From NCBI GenBank assembly GCA_029565675.1, contig JAKQNP010000003.1, positions 1,294 to 65,293 of the forward strand: a stretch of 64,000 nt of DNA, given 5' to 3'. The DNA is from a bacterium (GTDB lineage Bacteria > Zhuqueibacterota > Zhuqueibacteria > Residuimicrobiales > Oceaniaggregativiventaceae). Positions within the stretch are counted from its first letter, which is position 1. The number at the start of each line of letters is the position of its first letter. Made by a program: the position numbers and the translations under genes. This document shows positions 18,169 through 36,484 of this stretch, in pieces. The notes beneath the pieces are model-generated. The model was not told where the DNA came from. It saw only the letters and a program-made list of their open reading frames with translations, and searched no databases.

Positions 18169-18688
18169 CTTTGCTAAAAATCCTGTTTGCCGTTAACAGC
18201 CTTTTGGGGGCACGCATTGTCAACCATTCGTCGCCGACTCACGCAGACGGAAGAAGCCGTTCATCAGGAAAGAATTGCGTTCCGCGGCAAGCCCGGTCCC
18301 GTGCCCCACTGGGTTCAAGCTGAAAGTAACCTAGCCAATCCGGATCATAAAAACAACCAGAATAACTCAACAGCAAACCGGCAATCGATGTCCCGACAAA
18401 ACAACGGGGCGGAGAAAACTAAAGGACTATTTGCGGTTGTTTCAGTGTTATGTAAAGATTGGTTGTGCTGATTTTCAAACGCTTCCGCAACCCTGAAAGC
18501 TTCGCATCCTCATCACAGCCGTTTTGAAAGCTGGCATCCGCAATCCCGGCAACGCGGCCCTGTCGAATCGACAACCGGAGTCGGGAAAAACCATAAACGG
18601 AATATTCTGCAAGGCCGGCAGCTGCGATGCATCCGTGGAATTACAAAAAAACCTCTTGTTCAGCGCAAACCTGGAAGGATACTTGCTG

Positions 18689-19624: not shown

Positions 19625-19629
19625 ACCGG

Positions 19630-20646
19630 GTGCAGACAGCCATGTTCAAACGGTTTCGATCCATCCTCCATCCGGAAGGCTTTCATGGCCGAGCGCAAAG
19701 AGCGCCTTTTTTTGAAGGCTGGTACTACAAGCTGGTCGACGCCTCAGAGCAGCACTGTCTGGCTCTCATCCCCGGCATTGCACTCTCAGCCGATCCGCGG
19801 CAGAGTCATGCTTTCATCCAGATTCTGGTCGGCGTCGGCGGCCAATCCTTTTATCACCGCTTTGCGCCAGGGCAGTTCAGCGCGGAGATGCTGCGCCTCG
19901 ACCAGCGCATCGGGCCCAACTCTTTTTCCCGCAGCGGCATAAACCTGAATCTCGACATCCCGGGCTGTCGCTTGCATGGCAGCCTGCGGTTCGGGCCGTT
20001 CACATCCTGGCCTGTGAGCTGGCGCAACCCTGGCATCATGGGGTGGTATGCCTGGGTGCCTTTTATGCAATGTTATCACGCTGTGGTCAGCCTGGATCAT
20101 GATCTTTGCGGGGAGCTAAATCTGAGCGGTGAGCACATCGATTTCCGCGGCGGCCGCGGCTATATCGAAAAGGATTGGGGATACTCCTTCCCCAACGCCT
20201 ACATCTGGCTGCAGAGCAATCACTTCGATGCGCCAGGGACGAGCCTGATGGCCTCGGTGGCTGTCATTCCCTGGTTGCGCGGAGCCTTTCCGGGCTTCAT
20301 CATCGGACTCTATCATCAAAGCACGCTGTACAGGTTTGCCACCTATACCGGCGCCGTCATCAAGAAACTGGAAATCGGCGAACAGGAAATCGTCCTGCAA
20401 ATTGAGGACCGGAAACACCGGCTCTCGTTGTGGGCGCTGCGGGCCAAAGGCGGACTGCTGCAGGCCCCCACTTCCGAGGGGATGACAGGCCGAATCGGCG
20501 AGACGCTCGGCGGACGTGTTGAGGTGCGGCTGGAATCGATCGCAGATGGATGCACCATTTTGCAGCAGTGGGGCCGCCATGCCGGCATCGATGCTGCCGG
20601 AGAACTGGCGCGGTTGCTGCAGCTCTTTCGCCAGGCCTCGGACTAG
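19630..20646 (+). CDS. tocopherol-cyclase-family protein
   Basis: PFFEGWYYK near the N-terminus and YIEKDWGYSFPNAYIWLQSNHF match the hallmark blocks of VTE1/slr1737-type cyclases. GTG at 19630 or ATG at 19642. It starts 6-18 nt after the prenyltransferase stop. Confidence 0.75.
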   Translation: MQTAMFKRFRSILHPEGFHGRAQRAPFFEGWYYKLVDASEQHCLALIPGIALSADPRQSHAFIQILVGVGGQSFYHRFAPGQFSAEMLRLDQRIGPNSFSRSGINLNLDIPGCRLHGSLRFGPFTSWPVSWRNPGIMGWYAWVPFMQCYHAVVSLDHDLCGELNLSGEHIDFRGGRGYIEKDWGYSFPNAYIWLQSNHFDAPGTSLMASVAVIPWLRGAFPGFIIGLYHQSTLYRFATYTGAVIKKLEIGEQEIVLQIEDRKHRLSLWALRAKGGLLQAPTSEGMTGRIGETLGGRVEVRLESIADGCTILQQWGRHAGIDAAGELARLLQLFRQASD

Positions 20647-22981: not shown

Positions 22982-23552
22982 TGCGTCCCGAACGGGACGC
23001 TGGGAGAATGGCATGCTCGCTTGCTAGAAATATGCCGTCCCTGACGGGACGGGTTGGGTCTCCTCTTGCGGGTGCGCTAATGTTTCGCCACCGCGGGGCT
23101 TGAAGAGTTGAAAGCTATAAAGTTGGAAGCAAAAAGACTAATCCAGACGAGCGCGATCGCAAAGTCCGCCGCTATTGCGGATAAAGCAGCGCTAAACCAT
23201 GCGTACGAGGCAAGCCCCGCTGGTATGCAACAATTTTCTGTCGCCCCCTGCGGGGGCTCTGATGGAGTGTGGGGCCATCCCGTTTCCACGGGCTGACGCC
23301 CGTGGCCAAGATCTGCCGCCCACTGCGTGGGCTGGAAATTTTTCGCCACCGCGGGGCTTGTCCCCGCGGAGCGGTGATTGTTAGCCAGATTCGCGCCCCT
23401 TCTCCCCCTTTTTTTTGGTGGGGGTGGTGGGGCGGCATTTTTTTGGCTGTCAATCATCATCCCGCAGGGACAAGCCCTGCGGGGATGGGGATGTGCTCGG
23501 TATGCCTTTGGCTTTCAATCCCCATCTCGCGGGGGCAAGCTCCATGGGGATG
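22982..23552. repeat. copy B of the stem-loop mosaic, interrupted by a 238-bp insert
   Basis: 22982-23102 matches 16226-16346 with 6 mismatches in 121 nt. 23341-23552 matches 16327-16545. The 20-mer tttcgccaccgcggggcttg occurs at both junctions (23083-23102 and 23341-23360) but only once in copy A (16327-16346). Confidence 0.85.
23103..23340. mobile_element. 238-bp hairpin-rich insert inside a repeat (MITE-like or recombination product)
   Basis: Bounded by the 20-bp direct duplication. It contains its own small hairpins (GCCCCC-tgc-GGGGGC, CCCGT-ttcc-ACGGG, CCCAC-tgc-GTGGG). It encodes no transposase. Confidence 0.45.
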
Positions 23553-23571
23553 AAAAGACGATCCTCACAAA

Positions 23572-23612
23572 ATCCAGCAGAGCGCGATCGCAAAGTCCGC
23601 CGCTATTGCGGA
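23572..23612. repeat. 41-nt direct repeat, second copy of 23141-23181
   Basis: atccag..gagcgcgatcgcaaagtccgccgctattgcgga is present at 23141-23181 and 23572-23612. The copies differ only at 2-3 positions after atccag. Confidence 0.8.
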
Positions 23613-23825
23613 CGAGGAAGCGCGCGAAGGCTCCCGGAACCGCGGATTGTCGATAAACGGATCAGGGTTTTGAGTTTGAAAGTCAAAAGTAAAAAGTTAA
23701 AAGTTCAAAGTTTTGATGAGACCAAAAAGATATTTTGCTTAAACGCCAAAGCCGTCATTGCGCTCGATATCGATAAGACGTGTGCGGTCTGCCTAGTGTT
23801 TTGAAAGATTTGATATTCACGATGG

Positions 23826-24113
23826 TTACCGGTTTTTCCAGGAATTTGGTCTTTGACGCAAGTTCATGATCGCAATGATCAGAATTTTATCGTCTCGTTT
23901 CTGGTAGATCACACCATAGGGAAATCTGTTCGTGAGGCAGCGACGGGTTCGCTTGGAGAGAGGTGTCCAGGCATCAGGATAGTGGAGGATGCGTTGCAGT
24001 GTGCGTTTGATTTCCAATGCAAACTCAAAGCCGAGTCCGGGACTGAGCCGATTATAATAATTGATCGCATCGTTCAGTTCTTTTTCAGCCGGCTCGAGGA
24101 ATTCAAGTTTCAT
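23826..24113 (-). CDS. RelE/ParE-family type II toxin
   Basis: 95 aa. The pattern LEFLEPAEKELNDAINYY...YPDAW...RRCLTNRFPYGVIYQKRDDKILIIAIMNLRQRP is typical of ParE/RelE-fold toxins. It overlaps the upstream gene by 4 nt. Confidence 0.8.
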   Translation of the reverse strand: MKLEFLEPAEKELNDAINYYNRLSPGLGFEFALEIKRTLQRILHYPDAWTPLSKRTRRCLTNRFPYGVIYQKRDDKILIIAIMNLRQRPNSWKNR

Positions 24114-24352
24114 TCTCTTTGTCTTTTTTCTTTGTCACCGATTTTGTCAAAAACCATTTGCGCAGGAATCGATTTGATCTGTTGATTTTCATAGGCATCA
24201 ATACGTTCTTCTACCTCTTTTTCCCAGAGAATATCAAGGGAATGATCGGGTGAAACAATAAAACTGGACAACAATTTCTCTACGAGCTCGGCCCGCTCGA
24301 CCGGGTGCAGGTCGAGTGCCTCTCTCAGGATTTGTTCGGATTTTTTAGCCAT
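24110..24352 (-). CDS. putative addiction-module antitoxin
   Basis: 80 aa. LHPVERAELVEKLLSS...WEKEVEERI matches the 'putative addiction module component' family pattern. It is translationally coupled to the toxin. Confidence 0.7.
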   Translation of the reverse strand: MAKKSEQILREALDLHPVERAELVEKLLSSFIVSPDHSLDILWEKEVEERIDAYENQQIKSIPAQMVFDKIGDKEKRQRE

Positions 24353-24536
24353 GCAAATGTTCCTCTATTCATGTGCTTTCATCACAGTATAAACCCATTT
24401 AGAGAGAAAAGCAAGACGAGAATTGGTAAAAAGCGACAAGCCTTTGGCTTTTAAAGCCATAATCCTTGCTGTTCGCAAACAATTTGTAGATTGTAATCGT
24501 TAGTTCTTTTGCTTTTTGCCAAATTGATTTTTTGTG

Positions 24537-24561
24537 GGATTCGGTGCTGCGCACCGAATCC
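24537..24561. repeat. perfect 11-bp stem / 3-nt loop palindrome; best copy of a ~29-bp repeat family
   Basis: GGATTCGGTGC-tgc-GCACCGAATCC, 6 nt downstream of the permease stop at 24567. Related copies lie at 1988-2013, 28906-28936 and 35352-35378. Confidence 0.85.
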
Positions 24562-24566
24562 GGATT

Positions 24567-25379
24567 TCATTTAATCGCCCCGGCCGACAGGCCTTTGATA
24601 AAAGTTCGCTGGACCAGCAAAAACAGCACCAGGGGCGGCAGGCTGAACAAAACCGCTGCAGCCGACATCTGGTTCCAGACGTCCAAATATTCACCGACGA
24701 ACAAACCGATGCCCACCGGAATCGTTTGGGTCGCGTCGGACGAAGTGAGGATCAAGGCGAAAAAGAATTCGTTCCATGAACCGAGAAAAGCAAAAATCGC
24801 AGTGGCGCCGAGGCCAGGCAAGGCCAGGGGCAGCAACACTCTAAAGAGCGCTTCCAATCGTGAACAGCCGTCGATCAGCGCGGCGTCCTCGACCTCCTGG
24901 GGAATGGTGCGGAAAAAGCCGTACAACAGCCAGATCACAAAAGGCAACTGCACGGCGCTGTGAACGAGAATCAGACCGACATGGGTATCGAACAACCGGA
25001 GATCGCGGATCAGCTCAAAGAACGGAATGATAATCGATGATCCGGGCAGCATTTGCGACAAAAGCATCACCAGAAGAAAAAGATGCTTGCCGCGAAAAAC
25101 AAAGCGGCTCAGAGCAAAAGCGGCCAGACTGCCGATCACCAAAGTCAAAACAGTGGTGGCCGATGCGGTGATCAGGCTGCTCAAGGTGTATCGCGCAAAG
25201 GGCAGAAAGTTGAACATGTCTACATAAGCTTGCAGCGACATTTCCGGTGCAATCCAGCGCGGTGGTAGGTGCGCGGTCTCGATCATGGTCTTCAGAGAGG
25301 TATCGAACATCCACAAGATGGGCAGCAACACCCCAAATGCGACCAGGCTCATCAGGAGGATCAAACCGAATTTTTTCAT
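24567..25379 (-). CDS. carbohydrate ABC transporter permease (MalG-like)
   Basis: Six hydrophobic helices. The EAA-type loop DAALIDGCSRLEALFRVLLPLALPG is present. It overlaps the upstream permease by 4 nt. Confidence 0.9.
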   Translation of the reverse strand: MKKFGLILLMSLVAFGVLLPILWMFDTSLKTMIETAHLPPRWIAPEMSLQAYVDMFNFLPFARYTLSSLITASATTVLTLVIGSLAAFALSRFVFRGKHLFLLVMLLSQMLPGSSIIIPFFELIRDLRLFDTHVGLILVHSAVQLPFVIWLLYGFFRTIPQEVEDAALIDGCSRLEALFRVLLPLALPGLGATAIFAFLGSWNEFFFALILTSSDATQTIPVGIGLFVGEYLDVWNQMSAAAVLFSLPPLVLFLLVQRTFIKGLSAGAIK

Positions 25380-26248
25380 AGCGATTCCCTCCTCGAATAA
25401 ACCTTGAGATAGAGGAGCGACAATCCGAACAGAACCATAAAGATCAGAATGCTCAATGCCGAGCCCTTGCCGAGGTTGAACTGCACGAACGAATATTCCC
25501 GCACCAGCACGGGCAGCACCATGGAGGCTTGAATCGGGCCGCCGCGGGTCATGACAAAGACCATGTTGAAGTCGTTAAAGCTCCAGATCAGTCCCAGCAG
25601 CAACAGCACGCCGGTCACCGTGCGCAGATTGGGCAGGGTGATGTGAAACAGTTTGTCGAGCGATTTGGCACCGTCGACGTCCGCCGCTTCATACTGCTCC
25701 ACCGGAATCGCCTGCAAGCCGGCAAAAAACATCACCATGGCAAACGGAAAGAATTGCCAGACACGGGCGATGATGACGCACAACAACGCCGTATCCGCGC
25801 TGCCCAACCAGGTGATGTTATCGCTGATCAGGCCCAACTGCTTGAGCCAATGATTGATCAGGCCGCTTTGATCGTTCAGAATCCATTTCCAGGCAAATCC
25901 CGCCACCACAGGAGAGATCACCCACGGGATGGTATAGATCAACTTGAACACAGAAGTGATTCTGCCGATCTTGATATTCAACAGCAAGGCGGCAAACAGG
26001 CCAAAAACCATCGACAAAATCGTGCCCAGCCCGGCGTAGAGGATCGAATTTTTCAGCGACAGCCAAAAAACCTCGTCTTGCATAACCCGAACAAAATTTT
26101 TCAACCCGACCCATTGTCCGACGCCGTGAATCAAGCTGACCTGGCGAAAAGCGTTGGCCAAGTTCAGCACCAGCGGATAAACCAGCACAAAGAGCGTAAA
26201 AACCAGAGCCGGCAAAAGCAACAAAATCGGGGTGATTCTTCTTCTCAT
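25376..26248 (-). CDS. carbohydrate ABC transporter permease (MalF-like)
   Basis: Track ORF 25376..26293. The ATG at 26248 overlaps the binding-protein stop as ATGA. EAA loop YEAADVDGAKSLDKLFHITLPNL. Confidence 0.9.
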   Translation of the reverse strand: MRRRITPILLLLPALVFTLFVLVYPLVLNLANAFRQVSLIHGVGQWVGLKNFVRVMQDEVFWLSLKNSILYAGLGTILSMVFGLFAALLLNIKIGRITSVFKLIYTIPWVISPVVAGFAWKWILNDQSGLINHWLKQLGLISDNITWLGSADTALLCVIIARVWQFFPFAMVMFFAGLQAIPVEQYEAADVDGAKSLDKLFHITLPNLRTVTGVLLLLGLIWSFNDFNMVFVMTRGGPIQASMVLPVLVREYSFVQFNLGKGSALSILIFMVLFGLSLLYLKVYSRRESL

Positions 26249-27525
26249 TGTTCCTCCAATGCCTCGCGCGCTTTTTCCGCTGCTTCGTTCCATGCCTGCC
26301 TGGGATCCATCTCACCTGCAATCGCTTTCAACCCATAGGGGGCGATGACGTTGCGCACGATCCAGATCATCTGCGGATGCGGCGGCCATGGACGGGCAAT
26401 CGTGAGTTCATGTTGGTAAAGAGGCAGGTCCGGAATTTGTTGCGCCCGTTCGCTGTTCAAAGCCTCGTGAGTGACCGCCAGTGCACCAAAGTCCTGTTCG
26501 ATCCAGGCCATATCCGCCTCTGGATTGCGGATGAACTTGGTGTATTCCCAGGCTTCTTGCAGATGTTTGGAATCCATGTTGATCGCTTCCATGACCATGT
26601 CCTGCAGGGTGGGCAGACTGTCCGCTTGGGCCAGCAGATGATCCGGCACCGGAATCGCCACGGTGTAGAGGTCTTTACCCGGCGATTTTACACCCACCAA
26701 CCAACGAAACCAGGGGCCTTCGATGCTCATGCCGACCTTGTTGTTCGAAAAGAGATCGTTGATCTCGGAATGTGTATAGGCCAAAAAACCGGGGGTGATC
26801 GAACCGTCGATCTGATGCATGTCGACAAACAGCTGGAGAGCTGAAAAAGCCGCCTCGCTGTCGAACAACACCTCGGTCAAATCGTCGGAGAGAAAATCTG
26901 CGCCGGCTTTAAAGATAAAAGGAGCCAGGCGATAGGCAAACCCGCCGCGATCGCCGCCCATGATCACAAGACCCCATTGGTCGACTTCGCCGTCCCCATC
27001 GGTATCGCGAGTCAGTTCTTTTGCCACCCGGCGAAACTCCGACCAGGTGCGCGGTGGTTGCAGTCCATAGCGATCGAACAAATCGCGGTTGCAGCTCAAA
27101 ACAAAAGCAATGGCCGAGTTGGGCAGGCCGTAATAATGTCCCTTGTAGCAGGTTGCATCGATGGCATACGGTTCATACCAGCTCTTCACTTCTGCAAAAT
27201 CAGGGAATTGATCGATGGGATAGAAAAAACCGTTTTCGCCAAATTCAGCGGCGTAATTGGCATGCACCCGCATGACGTCCGGGCCGGTGCCGCAGACGAA
27301 ATTGGTATAGAGCAGCTCGCGGATCATGTTCCAGCTTTTTAAACTGACTTCTACTCGCACATTCGGATGCAGCTGCATGAACTGTTCAGTGCGGTCGCGC
27401 AGCCAGCCATTCATATCACCTGACCCGCCGAAAGCCCAGTAGCGCAGGGTGATGGTACCTTCAGATTTGCTGCACGACAACCACAAGAATGCTGCCACCA
27501 ACAGCACAGCGAACATCTTTTTCAT
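26245..27525 (-). CDS. ABC transporter sugar-binding lipoprotein (family 1 solute-binding protein)
   Basis: Track ORF 26245..27543. The ATG at 27525 has GGAG 6 nt upstream. Lipobox FLWLSC. The sequence is typical of CUT1 binding proteins. Confidence 0.85.
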   Translation of the reverse strand: MKKMFAVLLVAAFLWLSCSKSEGTITLRYWAFGGSGDMNGWLRDRTEQFMQLHPNVRVEVSLKSWNMIRELLYTNFVCGTGPDVMRVHANYAAEFGENGFFYPIDQFPDFAEVKSWYEPYAIDATCYKGHYYGLPNSAIAFVLSCNRDLFDRYGLQPPRTWSEFRRVAKELTRDTDGDGEVDQWGLVIMGGDRGGFAYRLAPFIFKAGADFLSDDLTEVLFDSEAAFSALQLFVDMHQIDGSITPGFLAYTHSEINDLFSNNKVGMSIEGPWFRWLVGVKSPGKDLYTVAIPVPDHLLAQADSLPTLQDMVMEAINMDSKHLQEAWEYTKFIRNPEADMAWIEQDFGALAVTHEALNSERAQQIPDLPLYQHELTIARPWPPHPQMIWIVRNVIAPYGLKAIAGEMDPRQAWNEAAEKAREALEEQ

Positions 27526-27712
27526 GCGCAACTCCATTTTCATCCAAATCCAATACTTTCAAATCAAGAGTCTCTCAGTTCGAAGTGCTGAGTCTCTTCC
27601 GATGTGTCCCACGAAGATAATGGCTAATAACCCGAAAAAGGTGTAACCTCAGAGATCAAACCCGAGATGCTCTTCAAATCCGAAATCCGACCTTCGAAAT
27701 CCAAAATGCTTT

Positions 27713-28798
27713 TTATTGTCGGGCTGCCTGGACAAAGGCGATAAAATTCTCCGGCGGTGTGCCGGGCAAAACACCATCGGCAGTCGATACGATATGCGGA
27801 AATCCGCGGGTCTCCTCGATAATGCGGCGGGTGGCTTGTTCCACCTGTTCCGGAGTGCCGTCGCGCAGCAGGGTCAGACTCAGATTGCCTTTGCTGCAAA
27901 TTCGGCGATCAAGAGCTTGTCGCGATTCTCGCAGGTCGTTATCTCCTTCCGGCGGCGGCGCCACGGTCTCGATCACATCGGCTCCCAGGCTGTTCATGGT
28001 GCCGTCAAGAAACCACTGGCGGGTATCTCCGCAGTTGTGATACCAGAATAAGCCGCCCAGTTCATGGGTGCGAAAAGCCAACGCCTGAATATAGGGCAAA
28101 TCCATCTCTCTGAACAGCTCCGGCGATGTCATTTCCAGGCCGTAGCTGGAATCGCTCATAAAATCGATTCCCTCCTCGATCGCGATGTGGACAATGAAGA
28201 GAGAAGCGCGGAACAAGGCGTTCATACTCTGGCGAAAAGCCGCGGGATAATCATTCCAGTGGAAAAAGATCTCTTGCGGGTTGATCTGACTGCACAGCCA
28301 GGACGGATGGGGATGGCCGAGCACGATAACCCCGTCCTCTCCCACTCGCCGGCGGAATTCGCGGAAATAGGTGCGGATTTCCCCCTCGCGATCGGTGATC
28401 TGTTCGCACACCTGCACAACCCGCTGGTGATCTGCTTCGCTTTGCACCGGACAAGCCGTCTCTTCGTTCCATTGGCTGTCGCCCCTGGGTTTGCGATAAA
28501 CCCATTCCCCATCGGGCAAATCGATGACCCGTACCTCGGTTTTTTCGTCCGAGCGATCCGGATCACTTCGCCAGGGAAAAAGCAGAGACTCAAAGTCGGT
28601 CATGAACATCGGTTCGTAATCGAGTCGCCTTGCCAGGGTGATTTCGTCGGCAAAAGGATCACCGGCGATTGGTTCACCGAGCAACTGCAGAGCGCTGCAG
28701 ATTTCCTGGTGGTCGGGCAAAAAGGGCGAAACCACCTGCCGGTGGTGCTGTGGATCACGAACATAATGCAGAAATCGTTGTCGTGGAGATAAGGGCAT
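27713..28798 (-). CDS. uroporphyrinogen-decarboxylase (URO-D) fold family protein, function unknown
   Basis: Track ORF 27713..28879. Start moved to the ATG at 28798 (MPLSPRQRF). The C-terminal block KGNLSLTLLRDGTPEQVEQATRRIIEETRGFPHIVSTADGVLPGTPPENFIAFV is typical of the URO-D/MtaA-like TIM barrel. Confidence 0.7.
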   Translation of the reverse strand: MPLSPRQRFLHYVRDPQHHRQVVSPFLPDHQEICSALQLLGEPIAGDPFADEITLARRLDYEPMFMTDFESLLFPWRSDPDRSDEKTEVRVIDLPDGEWVYRKPRGDSQWNEETACPVQSEADHQRVVQVCEQITDREGEIRTYFREFRRRVGEDGVIVLGHPHPSWLCSQINPQEIFFHWNDYPAAFRQSMNALFRASLFIVHIAIEEGIDFMSDSSYGLEMTSPELFREMDLPYIQALAFRTHELGGLFWYHNCGDTRQWFLDGTMNSLGADVIETVAPPPEGDNDLRESRQALDRRICSKGNLSLTLLRDGTPEQVEQATRRIIEETRGFPHIVSTADGVLPGTPPENFIAFVQAARQ

Positions 28799-28905
28799 TG
28801 CTCCGCTCCGTTCTGATTCAGGTGTCCATTCTGCCGCATTCCGGCGCCAAGAATGGCGCAAACCAAACAGACCAGTCAATTGTTCAAGTGTTCAAAAGCT
28901 TTTAA

Positions 28906-28936
28906 TCCGGATTCCGTGCTGCGCACCAGAGCCGGG
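28906..28936. repeat. degenerate copy of the 29-bp palindrome family
   Basis: tccggattccgtgctgcgcaccagagccggg, between the GRE stop (29124) and the URO-D-like gene start (28798). Confidence 0.7.
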
Positions 28937-29123
28937 CAATAGACCATTTGCGGCTGATTTTTCGACAGCGGTTTTTCGTCTGACGACGCGGATGACAGGC
29001 CTTGACAGTGAACATCCGCATGCAGCAGGGCAAGCGATGAGCATGGTTCCGGACTCGCTGTAGGACTCGGAACACAGGATCCACGGCAGCCGGCTGAATT
29101 GATTGCCAGCAGTTGTTCGCCGG

Positions 29124-31370
29124 CTATTCCTGCAGAATTCGATCCACAACCATGCGGCGGAACTCGGGTGACAGGCTGCCGAAGTAGGCGCTGAATCCGG
29201 TGACGCGCACCACCAAATCGGGATATCGGTTGGGATCTTTATCGGCAGCGAGGATTTTTTGCTTGTCCACAATGTTCAAATTGATTTGGGTGCCACCGAG
29301 TTCAAAATGGGTGCGAATATAGCCGACGATCAGCTGTACGCCGTTTTCCAGGCGCACAGTCCCGGGATCCAGTTCGATCTGCAGCGGAGCCGTGTTGCCG
29401 TACCCCGGTTGCACCACGGCCACGATGTTCGCCAGGGCGGTAGGGGCGCCGTCCTTGCGGAATCCGGGATCGGGATTGGGCCCGTGCGAAATGGGCGCTT
29501 TGGCGAACCTGCCGTTTGGGGTAGCGCCCACATCCAGGCCGTAGAGAATATTGGCTGCCCAGGAAAAGATGCCGGGAATCATGTTGAAACCATGAGGTGT
29601 CGGTTTTTCCTTGACCAGGTCGGTGAAGAGCTGAGCGATGCGGATGCCCCAGTCATCGGCAGGGGTGCCGCCATGGCCATAGCGCGGCACACTGCGCATC
29701 ATCAGCCGCACTCTTTCGCCTTCACCGCCCGACCAATTTGCATCCAACGTCTCTTTCAGTTTTTTCCAGCTCAGCCGCTTTTCGCGGTCAAGGCGCTGTT
29801 CCAGGGCAGCAAAAGAATCGGCGACCGTGGCGAGTCCGGCAGCGTCGAGGCAGAGGTTGTAAAACTCTACTCCGCCGTGGCTTGCGTCGCGACCGCGTTC
29901 GATCGGACCATGGCAGAGCAAGTCCAGGTGCAATTCAGGAAAATCGTTATACATATGATCGAGATGAAAATCCATGCACTCGGCGGTCGCCTGCACGGCG
30001 CAGCGCAGATGTTTTTCATAGCATGCAAACAGGTTTTCAGCGCTGGGCTCGACATTTTCGTCGCTTAAAAAATCGTTCAGCGCCGTTTCAAAGACGGCAG
30101 CCAGATTGATCTTGACGCAGTCGTTCATCGTATACTCACGGCCTGGAATGGCGCACCAGTGGCAGCCAGAGTAGATGCGCTGCCGACCGAGTTCGATCGG
30201 ATACCCGTTGCGGGTGAATCCTTCGCTGGTGTTGTCGACGCCGAGAAATTTCGGCATTCCGGCGTGGTCGGCGAACTGAATTTCCACTCCGCGGCGCAAC
30301 AATTCCTCACTGCTGTTTTTTCCGACGCTGACGCCGATATTGGCCGGAATTTTCAAGCGATGCGCTGCCTCGAGCACGAGAAAAGAGAGCTCATTGGTCT
30401 GATCGACGCCGTTTTCGTCCGGACCGCCGAGCTGCATGTAGCTGGTATCCATCACCAGATAACTCGCAAGATGAAAGACTGCTTCTTCATCGGTCAACAT
30501 ATTTTTAAATTTGTCGCGCTGGTAAAAGGGATAGAGAAGCTGGTCGATGCGGCCGAGCGAACCGCCCATGTTGTACATCTTGCCGATGATCTGATACCAC
30601 AAAACCCACTGTAAACCTTCGCGAAAGGTTGCGGGTGGATCGGTCACCAGTTTGCGGTTAATCGCAGCGATCTCGATAAGATTTTGCCGCAACTGCGGAT
30701 TTTCTTCTTGTGCAGCCATGCGCGCGGCTTCGTCTCCGTGCCGACCGATCCAGTTCTGAATACCGAGCACCGTAGCTTCGAGCCCATCGTACAAGGCCTG
30801 CGCTTCATCGTCGACATTGATGGTGCGAAAGCGATGGATCTTGTCGAGTATTCCCCCCCAGCCCAGCGTCAATCCGATCGAGAGATCCTGACAAAAATGT
30901 TGAACTGCGCCGATGCCGGGAATCAATTTGTATTTTTTGATCTGCGGTTCAAGATGCGGATAAGCACAATCGGGATTCCAGGCTGGATTGCGATAGGACA
31001 TAAAATTTACCCGATAGGCGCCGGCAAGGGAGCTCATCGGATCGATATAAGTGGGGTGCAGTTCGAGCAGCCGGCGGAAATTGCTGCCGACAGCCCGCGG
31101 TCCAAATACCCCGCCGCTTGGATGGTTGCTTTGAATAGAATATTCCTTGAGCAAAATATCGGTTATCGGCACTCCCGAGCCGCTGATCGTCTGAATAGGC
31201 AAACGCGATTCCGGCTCCGGCAAGACCAATCCATGGTCATCGAAATCCATCGAGCCGATCGCTTCCCATTTTTCCTGGGTGTGTTTCAACTTGGTTTGAT
31301 ACAGCGAGGCGATGCGTTCGTCGAAAGTCAGGACTGTTCTGTGGCATTCCACTTCGCTAAGCTGGTGCAT
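29124..31370 (-). CDS. glycyl radical enzyme (PFL2-like), substrate unknown
   Basis: 748 aa. C-terminal glycyl-radical motif VVRVTGFSAYF, with the Gly725 codon at 29196-29198. Candidate thiyl loop SGCHWCAIPG at 30153-30167. It starts 13 nt after the activase stop. Confidence 0.9.
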   Translation of the reverse strand: MHQLSEVECHRTVLTFDERIASLYQTKLKHTQEKWEAIGSMDFDDHGLVLPEPESRLPIQTISGSGVPITDILLKEYSIQSNHPSGGVFGPRAVGSNFRRLLELHPTYIDPMSSLAGAYRVNFMSYRNPAWNPDCAYPHLEPQIKKYKLIPGIGAVQHFCQDLSIGLTLGWGGILDKIHRFRTINVDDEAQALYDGLEATVLGIQNWIGRHGDEAARMAAQEENPQLRQNLIEIAAINRKLVTDPPATFREGLQWVLWYQIIGKMYNMGGSLGRIDQLLYPFYQRDKFKNMLTDEEAVFHLASYLVMDTSYMQLGGPDENGVDQTNELSFLVLEAAHRLKIPANIGVSVGKNSSEELLRRGVEIQFADHAGMPKFLGVDNTSEGFTRNGYPIELGRQRIYSGCHWCAIPGREYTMNDCVKINLAAVFETALNDFLSDENVEPSAENLFACYEKHLRCAVQATAECMDFHLDHMYNDFPELHLDLLCHGPIERGRDASHGGVEFYNLCLDAAGLATVADSFAALEQRLDREKRLSWKKLKETLDANWSGGEGERVRLMMRSVPRYGHGGTPADDWGIRIAQLFTDLVKEKPTPHGFNMIPGIFSWAANILYGLDVGATPNGRFAKAPISHGPNPDPGFRKDGAPTALANIVAVVQPGYGNTAPLQIELDPGTVRLENGVQLIVGYIRTHFELGGTQINLNIVDKQKILAADKDPNRYPDLVVRVTGFSAYFGSLSPEFRRMVVDRILQE

Positions 31371-31382
31371 CTGCAGTGCCTT

Positions 31383-32291
31383 TCACAAAAAGTATTCTCG
31401 TTCTACCCGTTTGCGCAGTTCCTGCAACTGTGAAAGCGGCATCAACGGCAAAGCAGCCGCTCGATAAGCGCGTCCCAAAGATTTGTATTTGTCGCCGGCC
31501 AGCCGATGAAAAGCCAGCCATTCCCAACGCAGTTCGGCGGCAATTCCCGCCCGTGTGCGCATCTGTTTCAATTCAGTGACGAAACCGGCCAGGGCCAGAA
31601 GTTCTTCGCCATCATTGACCGTCGGAATCACAGGTGTGCGAAACTCGATCGGTAGTTCCTGTTGTGCCAATAGACGCGCATTTTGCAGGATCCGTTCGTT
31701 GGGCCTGCCGACGGCGGCCCGATGGCGATCAGAATCGAGGAGTTTGAGATCCATCAGGATCAAATCTGTATAGGGCAAAATGGTTTCAATCTGCCGCCAG
31801 GGAACGTCGCCGCAGGTTTCCACTGCGGTGTGGATGGCGTGTTCCTTGCAGGACTGGAGAATGGCACGGGAAAAAGCCGCCTGCATCAAAGGCTCGCCGC
31901 CGGAAAGGGTCACCCCGCCGCCGCGGCTGTAAAAGGCTTGATCCCGCAACACTTCCTGCATAACCTCTTCCACAGACAGAGTCAGGCCGGCGATTTCGAG
32001 AGCACCGCTGAAACATTCCTGCACGCATTTGCCGCAAGCTGTGCAGTTTTGCCGCTGCAGAATGTGTTGGTCAGTTTCCATGAGATGAACGCCATTGGGA
32101 CAGCATTGCAGGCAGGCGCCACAACCAATACATTTATCAGGATTGTAGAGCAACTCTGATGAAACAGAGATCCCTTCAGGATTATGGCACCAAAAACAGG
32201 AAAGCGGACATCCTTTGAGAAAAACCGTGGTGCGTATGCCGGGACCGTCGTGAATCGAAAACCGTTGGATGTGAAAAATTTTTCCCGTCAC
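31383..32291 (-). CDS. glycyl-radical enzyme activating protein (radical SAM)
   Basis: N-terminal CPLSCFWC (CX3CX2C) at 32187-32210. Two ferredoxin-like clusters, CIGCGACLQCCP and CTACGKCVQEC. DGPGIRT motif. Confidence 0.9.
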   Translation of the reverse strand: MTGKIFHIQRFSIHDGPGIRTTVFLKGCPLSCFWCHNPEGISVSSELLYNPDKCIGCGACLQCCPNGVHLMETDQHILQRQNCTACGKCVQECFSGALEIAGLTLSVEEVMQEVLRDQAFYSRGGGVTLSGGEPLMQAAFSRAILQSCKEHAIHTAVETCGDVPWRQIETILPYTDLILMDLKLLDSDRHRAAVGRPNERILQNARLLAQQELPIEFRTPVIPTVNDGEELLALAGFVTELKQMRTRAGIAAELRWEWLAFHRLAGDKYKSLGRAYRAAALPLMPLSQLQELRKRVEREYFL

Positions 32292-32393
32292 CCAAAAACT
32301 CCGGTATGAAAGATACTGGGCAGCTAATAAAATCCCGTTCAGTGCGGTGTTCCGAGTTGCGCGGCCCGGAAGCAGAATAAAAACATTCAGATT

Positions 32394-32421
32394 ATTATAA
32401 CAAAATTTATCACAAACACAA
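32394..32421 (-). promoter_or_regulatory. candidate sigma70-type promoter for the activase-GRE operon
   Basis: The minus strand reads TTGTGT, a 16-nt spacer, then TATAAT, about 100 nt upstream of the activase start. The promoter consensus of this lineage is unknown. Confidence 0.3.
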
Positions 32422-32459
32422 GAGAAATGAGTAGTGAAAATTCTGCCCTTAGCTTCTTA

Positions 32460-33950
32460 TCAGTGCGGATTGGTCTGAACCTTGTCAGGGGGAGGAGCAC
32501 CCTGAATTAATTTATTGGCCATTCGCAGCGCACGGTCGGCGTAATCAAAGGTGCGCCGGGTCAGGGCCCGCCGGCGTTCTGCGGCATCGCTGCCGAGCCG
32601 GGCTTCGAATTCGCTCTGGCTTTTCAGTGCATCTTCCTCTAAAACTCGCCAGGCGTTGCGCACAAACGGCAGACGGGCAAAATAGTCTTGATCCACCCGG
32701 TCGCACAACCGCGAGAAAACGAAATAACTGAAATCCGCTCCGCGAGATCGGCGCAAGCTATCGCCGCTGAAATGCAGTTCCAGGGCTTCTCGAGGATCGT
32801 TCATGGTATAGGCGGCCGGCAGGCTGTCCAGATGCACCGTCCAGGGAATGAAGGCTTGTACATCAGGGCGCCGCGGAGCGATCCAGATGACCGCACCGAG
32901 ATCATCCGGCACCTGTCGTCGCAACTGGGCGATCAACCCATACTGAGTCGTGTGGTTGCAGATGGGATGGCCGTTGAGCTCGTGCGGATTGCCGAGGCGG
33001 TAGGACTGGCTGGAGTCGAGGTCAGTGTCTTCATAATGGTCGCGCAAAACCCGCATCAGATCACCCGGCGTCAATAGCTTTTTCGGCCGAAAAGAAAAAG
33101 GCAACGGTTCCTGTCGACCAACGGGTTCAGCAGCGAGCAGGTTGACCGCCGACCACATGCGCAGATGGTTTGTTGGTGTGGCCAGAGCTCTGGGATCGGA
33201 ATAGGCATAGGAAAAATGGAACAGACCGTCCTTTTCAGAATCATACCAGCCCCGCTGTTCGGCATAGTCCATCAAATCCGATGAACCGAGAAAATGGGTG
33301 GTATCGCTTAAATCGATATAACCCAATGTATAGTGGTTCGGAATCACCGCCACGTGATCGTTCGGTACACGCGCGGCCGCCCAGTGTTTTCCCTGCACGA
33401 CCGCCAACATCCAGCCCTCATCGCGATCGGCGATGATGTAGGTGCGACCTGAGGAGTCATAGCCATAGGTTTCGATCCAGTGGCCGGCCAACTGAACCGC
33501 ATGTCTGGCACTGTGCGCCCGTTCGGCCAGCAAACGGCGCAACCAAAAGGAAATTCCGCCGTTTTCAATTTCCCCGTCTGTTTCGCGCGATGGACAGGCG
33601 TTCGAAACAATCGAGACGGCATGACAATTGACATAGCTGTCGGAGAACAACATGCCGGGCATTTGCAGCCACAAATAGCCGGCCGTCGTTGGATCAGGAG
33701 CAACCAAACCGCCCTTGAGCAACCGAATCGGTTCATCGGTTATCTCCTGGATTGCAGGTTGAAGATGGAGAATCACCACCTGCTCGCCGGAATCGTCCTC
33801 GTTGTGCGCGAGCAAGACCGCACCATCTGCTGTTGTGTTGCGGCCGGCCACTATCGAAAAACAGCCGGAAGTTTGAGCAACGAGCGATTGTGCAAGGCCG
33901 ACGAAAAAAAAGATGGCCAAGGAAAAAAAGAATAAAATCTGTCTGCGCAT
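32460..33950 (-). CDS. peptidase family C69 dipeptidase, secreted
   Basis: Track ORF 32460..33965. The ATG at 33950 gives a signal peptide. The mature N-terminus CFSIVAGRNTTADGAVLLAHNEDD carries the C69 nucleophile Cys context. Confidence 0.85.
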   Translation of the reverse strand: MRRQILFFFSLAIFFFVGLAQSLVAQTSGCFSIVAGRNTTADGAVLLAHNEDDSGEQVVILHLQPAIQEITDEPIRLLKGGLVAPDPTTAGYLWLQMPGMLFSDSYVNCHAVSIVSNACPSRETDGEIENGGISFWLRRLLAERAHSARHAVQLAGHWIETYGYDSSGRTYIIADRDEGWMLAVVQGKHWAAARVPNDHVAVIPNHYTLGYIDLSDTTHFLGSSDLMDYAEQRGWYDSEKDGLFHFSYAYSDPRALATPTNHLRMWSAVNLLAAEPVGRQEPLPFSFRPKKLLTPGDLMRVLRDHYEDTDLDSSQSYRLGNPHELNGHPICNHTTQYGLIAQLRRQVPDDLGAVIWIAPRRPDVQAFIPWTVHLDSLPAAYTMNDPREALELHFSGDSLRRSRGADFSYFVFSRLCDRVDQDYFARLPFVRNAWRVLEEDALKSQSEFEARLGSDAAERRRALTRRTFDYADRALRMANKLIQGAPPPDKVQTNPH

Positions 33951-34036
33951 ATTTCGACCCTCCAAAAAGGGAACCGTTTGTCCAGAAATCTAAACTTTCC
34001 GTCGGAAAAAGCAAACAGGAGTTATGCGCTGCCGCC

Positions 34037-35044
34037 TCAATCCTTGGTCTTTGGCGGTCTATTGTATCCCTTTTCACCATACGGCGACAATTTGTTCAAC
34101 CACAACTCTTCCAACAGCTTGAGTTCTTCTTCAGCCCGCGACCGATCCCCGTCGATCACCTCTATCTTGTCGAGAATCTCGAAATCGAATTGATCCTCTC
34201 CCAGGCGATTGAAATCGGCTTGCAGTTCTGCATTGGGAAACGAGTTGAAACGCAATTGCGCTCGCACGCGATTGAGAATGGCGTTTAGATTGGGGTAGCT
34301 GCCGATCAACACCTTGCCGTTCTGGCGGTTGCGCACACAGTAGATTCCCATTGGTATCTTCATCTCTTTGTACGATCGTTTGAGTGCAGATCGATCGGTC
34401 ATCTCTGTATCCTTTCCTGCTTGAGCAGCGTAATCGCTTGCTGAACTCTCTTTGCTCTCTTTTTGTTCGGGTGGCTGGGGTTGGCCGTCGACCAGCCAAT
34501 AGCTGCCATCTCTCCGTGCCATCAAACCCTCATCGATCAACAGACGGCGCAAAGTGCAATAGTCGTCAGAATAGATCCCCAATCTGCGGTTGATCTCCTC
34601 CTCGGAATAGCTGCGCTCGGGATGAAATTCTTGCAGCAAACTCTGCAGCACAATGAGCCGCTTTTTCTTCTGCACCGGGATTTTGTGCAATCGGCCATCC
34701 GGCATAAACGTGTTGAGTACGGCAGAGCGAAAGTGCGCCATTCTTTTGGCCTGGATCTCTTCATCCCCGCTTTCGCCCGCCAGCAGATCTTGCAAAGAGG
34801 TTCGCATCGCCGCGCTGTTGAGCTGATAAACTGTATAGTACTGTTCACGCTTGGCAATCACCAAACCCGCTTTGGCCAACTTTTTGAGGTGAAAAGAAAC
34901 AGTCGAAACCGCCAAACCAAGGCGTTTGGCGATCTCCTCACCATATTGTTCGCCTTCGGCCAGCGTCCGAAGAATCCGCAACCGCGAGAGGTCAGCCAAT
35001 GCTTTGAACAGTTCGATCGAGCGATTGATTTCCACGCACACCAC
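34037..35044 (-). CDS. ArsR-type wHTH / DUF2087 / GIY-YIG nuclease-domain fusion protein
   Basis: Residues 1-95 are ArsR-like (LADLSRLRILRTL...STVSFHLKKLAKAGL). Residues 105-185 are DUF2087-like. Residues 228-335 have GIY-x10-LIG, a conserved Arg, FEILD and ELWLNKL...GYN, as in I-TevI-type GIY-YIG domains. The start could be the GTG at 35035, downstream of AGGTGG. Confidence 0.75.
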   Translation of the reverse strand: MVCVEINRSIELFKALADLSRLRILRTLAEGEQYGEEIAKRLGLAVSTVSFHLKKLAKAGLVIAKREQYYTVYQLNSAAMRTSLQDLLAGESGDEEIQAKRMAHFRSAVLNTFMPDGRLHKIPVQKKKRLIVLQSLLQEFHPERSYSEEEINRRLGIYSDDYCTLRRLLIDEGLMARRDGSYWLVDGQPQPPEQKESKESSASDYAAQAGKDTEMTDRSALKRSYKEMKIPMGIYCVRNRQNGKVLIGSYPNLNAILNRVRAQLRFNSFPNAELQADFNRLGEDQFDFEILDKIEVIDGDRSRAEEELKLLEELWLNKLSPYGEKGYNRPPKTKD

Positions 35045-35053
35045 CTTTTTTTA

Positions 35054-35125
35054 TTCGATTAATATCGAAACAAATATCGGCATTTTTGGGTAAAATGTCA
35101 ATCTTTTTCGATATCATTCGAATAT
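35054..35125. promoter_or_regulatory. cluster of TTCGATAT(T)-type boxes upstream of the ArsR-fusion gene (candidate operator)
   Basis: TTCGAT-taat-ATCGAA inverted repeat at 35054-35069. AATATCGG at 35073-35080. TTCGATATC at 35107-35115. TTCGAATAT at 35117-35125. Confidence 0.35.
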
Positions 35126-35351
35126 TTTTTGCGCCGGTATCAGAATAAGGAAACCAGGAATTTTAACAGCAAAGAGCCTTCATGGGCCGTGCGCCCGGTT
35201 TTTTGATCGCACGAGTTGAGAAGAGCTGCGATGGCAACCGAATCGCTGCACACCGGTTGTATGGTGTTGGGTGCAAGAAATTGCGCCGATCGACTTGTCG
35301 GTGGACTTTGAGTCACAATCAGGCTGTAATAGGCATCCAGGCTTTCTTCAA

Positions 35352-35378
35352 GATCCGGTGCTGCGCACCGAATCCGGG
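35352..35378. repeat. near-perfect copy of the 29-bp palindrome family
   Basis: gatccggtgctgcgcaccgaatccggg has one arm mismatch. It lies in the intergenic gap between the ArsR-fusion gene and clpP. Confidence 0.8.
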
Positions 35379-35641
35379 TTTTCCTCATGCTTGATAGATG
35401 GTGATGCATGACTGTTACACTCGAGGAGGGGAAAACGTTCATTTGATTCGCATCGATTGGCTGCCAAAAGAACTGGCAGCCAATTCGAACGCATTTTCGA
35501 TTTGTTCAGGAACAAGCGTGTCGGCGCGGGATTTCTCGGAAGGGTGGTTAGACGACGGTCAGCAGCAAAGCACAGCAGCGATCATCGATCCGCTTGCGAT
35601 AGCGGATAGGGCGACAGCGGCGTCCTAGGTGGACACTGCAA

Positions 35642-36214
35642 TCAGTCGACCTCCTTGACTGAGGTCACAATCTTGCCGACCAAACCATAGTCGCGGGCTT
35701 CTTCGGCACTCATCCAAAAATTGCGATCGGTGTCCTGGGCGATTTTTTCAATCGGTTGGCCGGTCTGCTCGGCGAGAATGCGGTTGAGGCGTTCGCGAAT
35801 CTTGACGATCTCCAGCGCTTCGATGCCGATATCCGATGCCTGTCCCATAACTCCGCCGCTGGGCTGATGCAGAAGAAAACGGGTGTTGGGCAGACAGAAT
35901 CGATTTTCCAACTTTGGAGCTGAATAGATCAGCGCTGCGGCGCTGGCAACCCAGCCCGTTCCGACCACCCGCACCGGTGCATCCAGGAAACGGATCAGAT
36001 CGAACAACGTATCGGCCGACTCCACATGACCGCCCGGCGAGTTGATGATCAATTTAATGGGCTCTTTGGATTCCTGCGCCAACACCAACATTTTTTCGGT
36101 GATCTCCTCAGCGAGCTCCTGGTTGATTTCGCCAAAAAGCAATATCGTTCGCATGTTCAGCATTTTTTTGGCGGTAAAATCGCTGAAAAACTCTTCTGGT
36201 TTTAAGACCGACAT
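35642..36214 (-). CDS. clpP: ATP-dependent Clp protease proteolytic subunit, Ser-His-Asn variant
   Basis: 190 aa with AAGGAAGGA RBS. It aligns without gaps to E. coli ClpP from the HQP motif onward. Ser91 (GWVASAAA) and His116 (LHQPSGG) are conserved. The Asp171-equivalent is Asn165 (codon 35720-35722, DTDRNFWMS). Confidence 0.9.
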   Translation of the reverse strand: MSVLKPEEFFSDFTAKKMLNMRTILLFGEINQELAEEITEKMLVLAQESKEPIKLIINSPGGHVESADTLFDLIRFLDAPVRVVGTGWVASAAALIYSAPKLENRFCLPNTRFLLHQPSGGVMGQASDIGIEALEIVKIRERLNRILAEQTGQPIEKIAQDTDRNFWMSAEEARDYGLVGKIVTSVKEVD

Positions 36215-36484
36215 CTCTATCCTTCCTTAATCTGGGGGTTGATGGTCTGTCCGCAAGAGCAACTCGAACAGAAAGCGTTTTTTAAATATCAGCTTGGGCA
36301 AATCGTGCATCCACCTTGGGCGGAAACAAGTGTGCCAATATAAGCATAAATCGTCTCAACTGCAAGTGTTTGCAGGTGTCCATCAAGCGATCTGCAGACC
36401 GACTGCTGATTTCGGCCCAAATCAGTTCTTCGCCCAAGATGCAGCAAACAGAACCTTTGGACCATTTGGCCGTCGACGGTTGAG

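Follow-up and report, generated by a model that had tools for sequence, protein, structure and literature searches.

A glycyl radical enzyme with tryptophan in place of the eliminase glutamate, encoded with a sugar-type importer and a URO-D-fold protein: a probable undescribed anaerobic route for a sugar-like compound

What reaction is served by a glycyl radical enzyme (GRE) that is encoded side by side with a sugar-type ATP-binding cassette (ABC) importer and a protein of the uroporphyrinogen decarboxylase (URO-D) fold? We addressed this question for a locus in a 64,000-nucleotide stretch of DNA from a bacterium of the Zhuqueibacterota (GenBank assembly GCA_029565675.1, contig JAKQNP010000003.1, positions 1,294 to 65,293), hereafter called the window. 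A preliminary description of the same DNA had not recognised this set of partners from any characterised GRE system, and the searchable full-text literature indeed gave no description of the GRE clade or of the partner set. The sole paper that mentions a GRE together with a URO-D protein, a Desulfitobacterium proteome study, places them in unrelated loci and was set aside. As judged from its sequence, the window GRE is a member of the superfamily but appears to fall into none of the characterised classes; it belongs to a clade in which the catalytic cysteine is followed, two residues later, by an invariant tryptophan (C-x-W). The locus probably marks an undescribed anaerobic breakdown route for a sugar-like compound.

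The locus consists of six genes, all on the minus strand and running from 32291 to 24567, which we infer to form an operon: an activase, the GRE, the URO-D-fold protein, a CUT1-type binding lipoprotein and two permeases. Each assignment was confirmed by Pfam and NCBIfam profile searches. The ORF coordinates agree with the common direction given in the preliminary description, which had counted seven genes; the interval holds six. A 126-aa ORF at 28892–29272 was considered as a seventh gene or small subunit and rejected, as it overlaps the 3' end of the GRE gene and is without support. The six genes are:

31383 to 32291, minus strand: GRE-activating radical SAM enzyme, 302 aa, GTG start (PF04055, Fer4_12, Fer4; TIGR02494)
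29124 to 31370, minus strand: GRE of the C-x-W clade, 748 aa (PF02901, PF01228)
27713 to 28798, minus strand: URO-D/MtaA-fold TIM-barrel protein, 361 aa (PF01208)
26245 to 27543, minus strand: CUT1-type solute-binding lipoprotein, 432 aa (PF01547, PF13416)
25376 to 26248, minus strand: ABC permease 1, MalF/UgpA-like (PF00528)
24567 to 25379, minus strand: ABC permease 2, MalG/GlcU-like, 270 aa (PF00528)

All hallmarks of the GRE superfamily are present in the 748-aa protein and its neighbour: both GRE domains, the RVxG motif, an aligned catalytic cysteine, the barrel fold and a CX3CX2C activase encoded 12 nt upstream. The domain matches reach 273.6 bits for PF02901 and 49.8 bits for PF01228. 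The C-terminal RVTGFSAYF noted before was read again as part of VVRVTGFSAYF, in the region DLVVRVTGFSAYF, and contains Gly725, the residue that would carry the glycyl radical once the enzyme is activated. The AF2 model (pLDDT 83.2, pTM 0.86) shows the ten-stranded barrel fold, and in Foldseek it matches all solved GREs with TM values of 0.70–0.79 at 15–24% identity, no single GRE family being singled out. The activase retains the features ascribed to it earlier, namely the radical SAM motif CX3CX2C (CPLSCFWC) and two ferredoxin-like clusters (two 4Cys motifs). Its TIGR02494 score of 338.8 bits exceeds the cut-off of 174; no NCBIfam equivalog cut-off is reached.

The residues around the catalytic cysteine set this GRE apart. 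Cys403, located in the loop G-C-H-W-C and invariant in the family, aligns with the catalytic cysteine of PflD, of 1,2-propanediol dehydratase (PD; 9rco) and of glycerol dehydratase (GDH; Cys433). In the PDB alignments the residue at C+2 is Trp405, where PflD has Glu433, GDH Glu435 and PD the equivalent glutamate. According to a 2026 review from the Drennan group (PMC13450708), the C-O, C-N and C-S eliminases as well as the new isomerases all retain C-x-E, two cysteines on the loop occur only in pyruvate formate-lyase (PFL) and TdcE, and HPAD uses Glu505. The window GRE has neither the C-x-E of eliminases and isomerases nor the Cys-Cys of PFL and TdcE. We considered the second cysteine of C-H-W-C as a PFL-like partner and rejected it, since the +3 position is not conserved and is occupied elsewhere in the family by S, Y, H, F or M. 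Other positions of the GDH active site are partly kept: His158 and Asp417 correspond to GDH His164 and Asp447, and Gly and Phe stand at the positions of GDH His281 and Tyr640, respectively.

Profile scores lead to the same conclusion. In a PDB sequence search PflD, PD and GDH tie at about 183 bits and the scores are flat across families, with X-succinate synthases, HPAD and PFL below the eliminases (TutD 81.5 bits, MasD 113 bits). Every NCBIfam equivalog is missed widely: HpsG (the best, 220 bits vs. a cut-off of 1000), HypD (204 vs. 1100), CutC (175 vs. 1050), indoleacetate decarboxylase (144 vs. 1100) and the HPAD large subunit (110 vs. 1150). The arylacetate decarboxylases are further marked by an active-site glutamate pair, and the window GRE has no C-x-E. 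On the broad PFL2-3 subfamily model TIGR01774 it scores 267 bits (cut-off 678), and on the PFL model TIGR01255 81.9 (cut-off 994). No gene for the small FeS subunits of X-succinate synthases is present in the operon. Because the C-x-E, Cys-Cys, decarboxylase and X-succinate synthase score tests all fail, we place the enzyme outside the characterised classes.

The tryptophan at C+2 is shared by a broad set of sequences. Among 31 genomic and metagenomic relatives, the loop follows the pattern G-C-[H/N]-W-x-x-[I/L]-P-G-x-E-[Y/F]-T-x-x-D with the tryptophan invariant. An exhaustive search without profiles, over 1.84 billion representatives, yielded 1007 matches at E<=1e-30, from which 38 full-length representatives were aligned. 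All those that score above ~240 bits and carry the P-G-x-[E/Q]-aromatic...D signature have tryptophan at C+2 (GC[HNQFPG]W), down to 27% identity, and the other aligned representatives have C-x-E or variants of it (CVQ, CQH). We built a neighbour-joining distance tree from the aligned representatives together with sequences of the sister family and of Actinomycetota; E. coli PflD, YbiW and PflB were the only three characterised enzymes in it, and for the remaining characterised GREs a place in the clade is excluded by motif and score. All C-x-W sequences form one clade in this tree (200/200 bootstraps), apart from all C-x-E sequences; the window GRE, which shares 25.5% identity with PflD, 24.6% with YbiW and 18.7% with PflB, is not nested in a characterised clade, and the phylogenetic check called for in the preliminary description thus turned out in its favour. 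The clade comprises more than 240 clusters at 90% identity among the matches listed and spans at least seven phyla from fens, soils, sediments, digesters and guts. A scan of metagenomes with the distant member P0408 gave three loci only, with CVE- or CGQ-type loops and no C-x-W. One member, P0365 (1052 aa), is a natural fusion of an N-terminal GRE-activating radical SAM domain (CX3CX2C) with a full-length C-x-W GRE. In a Bacteroidota genome (L003:4077-6434), an ordinary C-x-E-type GRE of 785 aa (loop G-C-V-E-T) is encoded 3.5 kb upstream of a C-x-W cassette.

We found that the partners of the GRE are conserved along with it. A scan of one genome per species recovered 30 loci in metagenome-assembled genomes (MAGs) of Bacteroidota/Ignavibacteriota, KSB1, Chloroflexota, Actinomycetota, Armatimonadota, Verrucomicrobiota and Gemmatimonadota, from fens, Danish soils, digesters and sediments. 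According to tblastn and ORF clustering, the order activase-GRE-URO-D-binding protein-permease-permease recurs in about 17 loci of Bacteroidota/Ignavibacteriota-type MAGs. The binding-protein orthologues in syntenic loci are 55–67% identical, and most related loci have an activase orthologue beside the GRE. On an 832-kb contig the identical cassette is located between unrelated genes (arginase and a kinase upstream, RND efflux downstream); as the cassette recurs between unrelated flanks, the six genes behave as a self-contained module. Co-localisation of the transporter and URO-D genes with GRE orthologues, the second check suggested in the preliminary description, was observed in MAGs of Bacteroidota/Ignavibacteriota, Chloroflexota and Actinomycetota and in unclassified metagenome contigs, and at the KSB1 MAG locus L018 the transporter alone of the two is co-localised with the GRE. 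In Actinomycetota the layout is rearranged to binding protein-permease-permease-URO-D (divergent)-GRE-activase. In a Chloroflexi locus, a cytoplasmic GH38 alpha-mannosidase gene precedes the activase and the URO-D gene lies 2.3 kb downstream. A C-x-W GRE of 30% identity is found in the arrangement IolG-like dehydrogenase, KpsF-type SIS protein, SBP_bac_1 binding protein, two permeases, URO-D, activase, GRE and a further URO-D; since the partnership persists at 30% GRE identity, the association of GRE, URO-D-fold protein and CUT1 transporter must be old. The gene association is far beyond chance.

In an Opitutaceae MAG (L029:12592-14860), a true hemE (PF01208, 387 bits) directly follows a C-x-W GRE. 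We rejected it as a functional partner and regard the adjacency as a chance heme operon, because a HemY-like amine oxidase gene comes next.

For the URO-D-fold protein, the fold named in the preliminary description is borne out by a PF01208 match of 74.4 bits and by the AF2 model (pLDDT 91.7), for which Foldseek ranks MtaA first (E 3e-13, TM 0.64–0.67, 16–17% identity), followed by HemE and MetE. The protein is not HemE: it scores 20.7 bits on TIGR01464 against a cut-off of 303, and its Pfam match, which spans the C-terminal half only, compares with the 387 bits reached by a true HemE. It is also far below the cut-offs of the MtaA/CmuA models (TIGR01463, 52.1 vs. 235.4 bits; NF040654, 41.5 vs. 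400). A putative zinc site is formed by His254-x-Cys256, Glu277 and Asp341. The H-x-C-G motif aligns with that of MtaA (4ay7) and is invariant among the orthologues, as is a glutamate 21 residues after H-x-C, and Asp341 stands where MtaA has its last cysteine ligand. The spacing of this putative site resembles that of His641/Cys643/Glu665/Cys726 in MetE, and the protein may well be a zinc-type enzyme. No gene for a corrinoid or cobalamin-binding protein is present in the operon or in any related locus with annotated genes, which argues against a classical methyl-transfer system.

Two lineages lack the URO-D gene and have a cupin instead. In the Bacteroidales sister loci described below, the GRE gene is followed by one for a cupin of 141–146 aa, with similarity to PDB entry 3d0j, itself uncharacterised, and weaker similarity to Cupin_2 and FdtA. 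In turn, the KSB1 locus L018, whose GRE is 63% identical to that of the window, has the order PfkB, EamA, binding protein, further genes, activase, GRE, two permeases and a bona fide D-lyxose/mannose isomerase (L018:14223-14903; PF07385, 306.6 bits), with no URO-D gene within 10 kb. We read the cupins as non-orthologous replacements of the URO-D-fold protein. As cupins, including a lyxose isomerase, take its slot elsewhere, the comparison suggests a metal-dependent isomerisation of a sugar as the reaction of the URO-D-fold protein.

The transporter points to carbohydrates as well. The CUT1-type lipoprotein and two permeases of the preliminary description were recovered as SBP_bac_1 with the lipobox L-S-C and as two BPD_transp_1 matches. 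The binding protein scores 96.8 bits on PF01547 and 75.8 bits on PF13416 and has a signal peptide with lipobox ...FLWLSC. Its closest PDB relatives are sugar-binding proteins, 5ci5 first at 92 bits, and it reaches no equivalog (MalE best, 38 bits). Permease 1 matches the UgpA and GlcT models below threshold, and permease 2 those of GlcU (151 bits) and MalG (107 bits), likewise sub-threshold. No ATPase gene is present in the operon, as is common for CUT1 importer operons.

We found that all informative gene contexts involve carbohydrate uptake and entry into sugar-phosphate metabolism. A fusion of a PfkB kinase with a HAD domain, of ~630 aa, is encoded just downstream of the permeases in nine main-family loci (L006, 16745-18634; L004, L008, L010, L012, L013, L024, L027 and L030), one of them actinomycetotal, and is missing from the window. 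The best match of its kinase part is the heptose-7-phosphate kinase domain of RfaE (109 bits, below cut-off), and the actinomycetotal locus additionally encodes a GmhA-like SIS protein. Two main-family loci include a GH29 or GH95 fucosidase inside the cluster. A sister GRE subfamily (~45% identity, loop G-C-N-W-M) occurs commonly in Bacteroidales and Marinilabiliales, with Draconibacterium, Carboxylicivirga and Puteibacter among its cultured carriers. The five loci examined (L033-L037, on Draconibacterium, Carboxylicivirga and uncultured Bacteroidales contigs) have the layout AraC regulator, activase, GRE, small cupin and permease. Three of the five (L034, L035 and L037) run on after ~25 nt into SusC/SusD-LamG-GH76-GH92, an alpha-mannan polysaccharide utilization locus (PUL; e.g., L034:7908-22142); in L033 the GH92 gene directly follows the permease, and L036 is devoid of the permease and has GH92 ~9 kb away. 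The permease of the sister loci reaches 356.9 bits on the L-rhamnose/H+ symporter (RhaT) equivalog, the cut-off of which is 369, and the regulator is RhaS/RhaR/ChbR-like. Among more distant C-x-W GREs, one is preceded by a RhaD-aldolase-like (Aldolase_II) gene, and another (loop A-C-P-W-Y; L045:1182-10490) has an inositol-3-phosphate-synthase-like gene on either side, together with a PfkB kinase on one flank and a CUT2 transporter on the opposite one. Archaeal-type Pelota/eRF1 genes are encoded on the same contig as well. The contexts with alpha-mannosidase, fucosidases, RhaT-like permease and sugar kinase fit the model of the preliminary description, in which an imported glycan-derived small molecule undergoes radical chemistry. 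With the GRE outside the characterised clades and the partners found beside its orthologues, that interpretation is supported overall.

We propose the following scheme. The lipoprotein and the two CUT1 permeases, energised by an ATPase encoded elsewhere, would import a neutral solute in unphosphorylated form. The activase would install the radical on Gly725, and the thiyl radical of Cys403 would then abstract a hydrogen from a substrate packed against the invariant Trp405, with its hydroxyls held by His158 and Asp417, a placement taken from the alignment. Because the general-base glutamate of the known eliminases and isomerases is absent, the proposal excludes classical Glu-assisted 1,2-elimination by way of a ketyl; the radical step might instead be another rearrangement, i.e., an isomerisation, a ring opening or an elimination aided by another group. 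The URO-D-fold zinc enzyme would contribute a polar reaction after or before the radical step, most likely an isomerisation of the aldose-ketose type, and a PfkB-family kinase, in many genomes encoded beside the cassette as a HAD fusion and not in the window, would phosphorylate the product for glycolysis. Candidate substrates include manno- and lyxo-configured hexoses, 6-deoxyhexoses and relatives without a carbonyl group (anhydro-alditols, cyclitols and O-methyl sugars). On balance, we lean towards this general scheme of a six-gene operon, an imported neutral sugar-like solute, a Glu-independent radical step, metal-dependent isomerisation and phosphorylation; our confidence in any single substrate is much lower.

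Several observations weigh against the scheme. Asp417, Glu412 (in the conserved P-G-R-E-Y) or His404 (Asn in some members) could, to go by the alignment, replace the missing glutamate and make the GRE an ordinary eliminase. The isomerase role of the URO-D-fold protein is drawn from cupin substitution in two lineages, with the bona fide lyxose isomerase found at a single locus; we know of no isomerase with a URO-D fold, the closest relatives being methyltransferases and a decarboxylase. Three orthologues (L014, L020 and L028) have no transporter, URO-D or activase gene within 10 kb. Finally, the contexts imply differing sugars (of the mannose/heptose type, 6-deoxyhexoses such as rhamnose and fucose, and an inositol-like cyclitol), and substrates may therefore differ between lineages.

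A bolder version of the scheme, which we put forward only tentatively and regard as rather doubtful in its full form, is that the C-x-W enzymes constitute a new mechanistic class of GREs acting on free, unphosphorylated carbohydrates without a glutamate base, and that the URO-D-fold partner is a novel zinc-dependent sugar isomerase which finishes the reaction. One such substrate would be a sugar relative without a carbonyl group (cyclitol, anhydro-alditol or ether), converted to a hexose or an enediol by radical opening of the ring or cleavage of a C-C bond.

Among the other explanations, the one that fares best takes the GRE as a conventional dehydratase or a ring-opening isomerase of the PflD/YbiW type, acting on an unphosphorylated polyol or anhydro-alditol such as 1,5-anhydromannitol or 1,5-anhydroglucitol, with another acid in place of the glutamate and the URO-D-like enzyme handling a reactive product. 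The best matches in sequence and fold are, by a small margin, PflD, propanediol dehydratase and glycerol dehydratase; the diol-binding His and Asp of GDH are retained, Glu412 and Asp417 are conserved near the loop, and an importer with a downstream kinase resembles the layout of 'anhydroglycolysis' in E. coli. Yet, the C-x-E glutamate kept by every characterised eliminase and isomerase is an invariant, bulky tryptophan across a deep clade that stands apart from PflD and YbiW in all 200 bootstraps, and no FSA-type aldolase is conserved beside the cassette. We consider this explanation unlikely.

It seems quite unlikely, too, that the GRE uses L-rhamnose, L-fucose or the ketose of such a 6-deoxyhexose and so provides an alternative to the isomerase-kinase-aldolase route, the adjacency to alpha-mannan PULs in Bacteroidales being incidental. 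This explanation, which differs from the general scheme in the substrate only, draws on the near-threshold RhaT score of the sister permease (356.9 vs. 369 bits) and its RhaS/RhaR/ChbR-like regulator, on the GH29 and GH95 fucosidases of two main-family loci and on the RhaD-aldolase-like gene before a distant C-x-W GRE. Against it, the GRE-cupin-RhaT genes of three loci run into SusC/SusD-GH76-GH92 across a gap of ~25 nt, and GH38, the lyxose/mannose isomerase, the RfaE-like kinase and the GmhA-like SIS protein point to manno-configured sugars. Moreover, rhamnose and fucose have oxygen-independent polar pathways, so that by our reasoning a radical enzyme would not obviously be needed.

A third explanation assigns the system to demethylation of O-methyl sugars or cyclitols, with the MtaA-like zinc protein as methyltransferase and the GRE processing the ether or eliminating methanol. 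In structure and by profile the partner indeed matches methylcobamide:CoM methyltransferases best, and its H-x-C-G zinc motif is invariant; methyl ethers are, as we reason, hard to cleave without oxygen, which would make a radical enzyme sensible. But none of the loci with annotated genes has a corrinoid protein, a second methyltransferase or a reductive activator, the MtaA/CmuA model gives 52 bits against 235 with the third cysteine ligand of MtaA replaced by Asp, and the cupins that take the partner's place elsewhere, the lyxose isomerase among them, are not methyltransferases. We hold this explanation to be very unlikely. It is hardly credible that the genes are chance neighbours or were co-transferred without a shared pathway, with the GRE as, e.g., a housekeeping PFL-like enzyme: a few orthologues do stand alone (L014, L020 and L028, without transporter or URO-D) and the hemE beside the GRE of L029 is a chance heme operon, but the identical order with overlapping or close ORFs in about 17 loci with unrelated flanks, its persistence at 30% GRE identity, a PFL score of 82 bits against 994 and the lack of Cys-Cys all speak against it.

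The remaining features of the locus are:

32292 to 32459, minus strand: AT-rich leader and putative promoter region of 168 nt, between a C69 peptidase gene and the activase gene
28799 to 29123, minus strand: non-coding spacer of 325 nt from the GRE stop to the URO-D start, read directly
24537 to 24561, strand not assigned: perfect 11-bp palindromic hairpin, from a terminator-like scan and a consensus match only

The activase begins at the GTG at 32291, and 32292–32421, which the preliminary description had included in the locus, is non-coding leader. The gap between activase and GRE genes, given there as 13 nt, is 12 nt when read directly. The ATGA overlaps of 4 nt, in turn, were read as described: binding protein and permease 1 share ATGA at 26248–26245, and permease 1 and permease 2 at 25379–25376. 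Permease 1 likely starts at the ATG at 26248, although the longest ORF starts at 26293. For the URO-D gene, the ATG at 28798 is the most likely start, giving 361 aa, because a 361-aa database protein (P0121) is identical. The 325-nt spacer in front of it is unusually long, orthologous loci having usually much shorter ones, down to 4–12 nt, and it holds no Rfam match and no obvious ORF. We also looked for a riboswitch or leader RNA as a clue to the ligand, and Rfam at E<=1 over 23500–36500 gave one spurious miRNA match only. In the promoter and terminator scans matches were no commoner than in shuffled sequence, and the hairpin after the last gene alone was noteworthy; located 6 nt past the last stop codon, it likely marks the end of the operon.

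The genes that flank the operon in the window are unrelated to it: a secreted C69 peptidase and an ArsR-DUF2087 protein upstream, and small ORFs and a thioesterase-like protein downstream. The gene of the secreted C69-family dipeptidase (32460–33965) lies directly upstream of the leader; it is also found in the near-identical contig L032 (552–2042) and not in other orthologous loci. The next protein (34037–35044, minus strand) is an odd fusion of an N-terminal ArsR/SmtB helix-turn-helix, DUF2087 and a weak C-terminal match to a GIY-YIG-type group I intron endonuclease (31 bits). The window had been called rich in secreted glycan-degrading enzymes. This holds only in part: glycan-related proteins are present (GHL6/GH42M-like, GxGYxYP, GHL10, AGE-family and heparinase II/III-like), yet all of them are encoded at least 12 kb from the operon. 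We tried the flanks as a clue to the substrate and dropped them, these putative glycan enzymes being both that far off and not mannan-, fucose- or rhamnose-specific. Elsewhere in the window (16624–20646), three adjacent genes encode a photolyase-related DPRP protein, a UbiA prenyltransferase and a tocopherol-cyclase-like protein, possibly a prenylquinone or chromanol cluster in a seemingly anaerobic, KSB1-like organism.

The question raised by the locus reaches beyond one bacterium. GREs let anaerobes perform chemistry which otherwise needs oxygen or B12, and each newly assigned class has opened a pathway: choline to trimethylamine, hydroxyproline, sulfonates and anhydro-sugars. The C-x-W clade breaks the C-x-E rule which the 2026 review (PMC13450708) applies to every carbohydrate- or alcohol-active GRE. 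Once its substrate is assigned, a radical reaction new to sugar chemistry and an overlooked step of anaerobic carbon turnover would probably come to light, and the 'URO-D family' proteins found again and again next to sugar-transporter genes at C-x-W loci would receive their first function. If the C-x-W enzymes do form a new mechanistic class, the route would be widespread among anaerobes of soils, peat, sediments and guts. The cultured carriers of the sister subfamily, i.e., Draconibacterium, Carboxylicivirga and Puteibacter, make the question directly testable.

The locus can be set beside several known systems. The importer part corresponds to CUT1 importers of the MalEFG/UgpBAE type, with an SBP_bac_1 lipoprotein followed by translationally coupled MalF-like and MalG-like permeases, although the window proteins reach no equivalog (MalE best, at 38 bits). 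The URO-D-fold protein shares the TIM-barrel fold and H-x-C-G with MtaA and the URO-D/MetE zinc alkyl-transfer barrels. In contrast to MtaA, it has Asp for the third cysteine and no corrinoid partner, is encoded within a sugar transport/GRE operon and is replaced by cupins in related loci.

As for the GRE, it is about equally far from all eliminases in sequence and fold. The B12-independent glycerol and propanediol dehydratases have the same fold (TM 0.77–0.79, among the best structural matches) and an activase of the same two-ferredoxin-motif type, and the equivalents of His164 and Asp447 of the glycerol dehydratase are retained. Yet, compared with that enzyme, the window GRE has Trp for Glu435, Gly for His281 and Phe for Tyr640, scores 267 against 678 bits on TIGR01774, and belongs to an operon without microcompartment genes and linked to a sugar importer.

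The nearest functional analogue is the 'anhydroglycolysis' of E. coli YbiW/PflD, in which the genes for a dedicated sugar transporter, a PFL-like GRE and the matching activase are grouped. The GRE of that route attacks a carbohydrate ring directly, and the product passes into ordinary sugar-phosphate metabolism; PflD is also the top PDB sequence match of the window GRE. YbiW and PflD keep C-x-E, with the glutamate binding the C2 hydroxyl, whereas the loop of the window enzyme reads C-H-W. Their systems use phosphotransferase-type (PTS) transporters, and that of the window relies on ABC import, so that its substrate would arrive unphosphorylated. The window locus has, moreover, no FSA-type aldolase and instead a URO-D-fold partner, and its GRE, at ~25% identity to YbiW and PflD, stands in a clade of its own (200/200).

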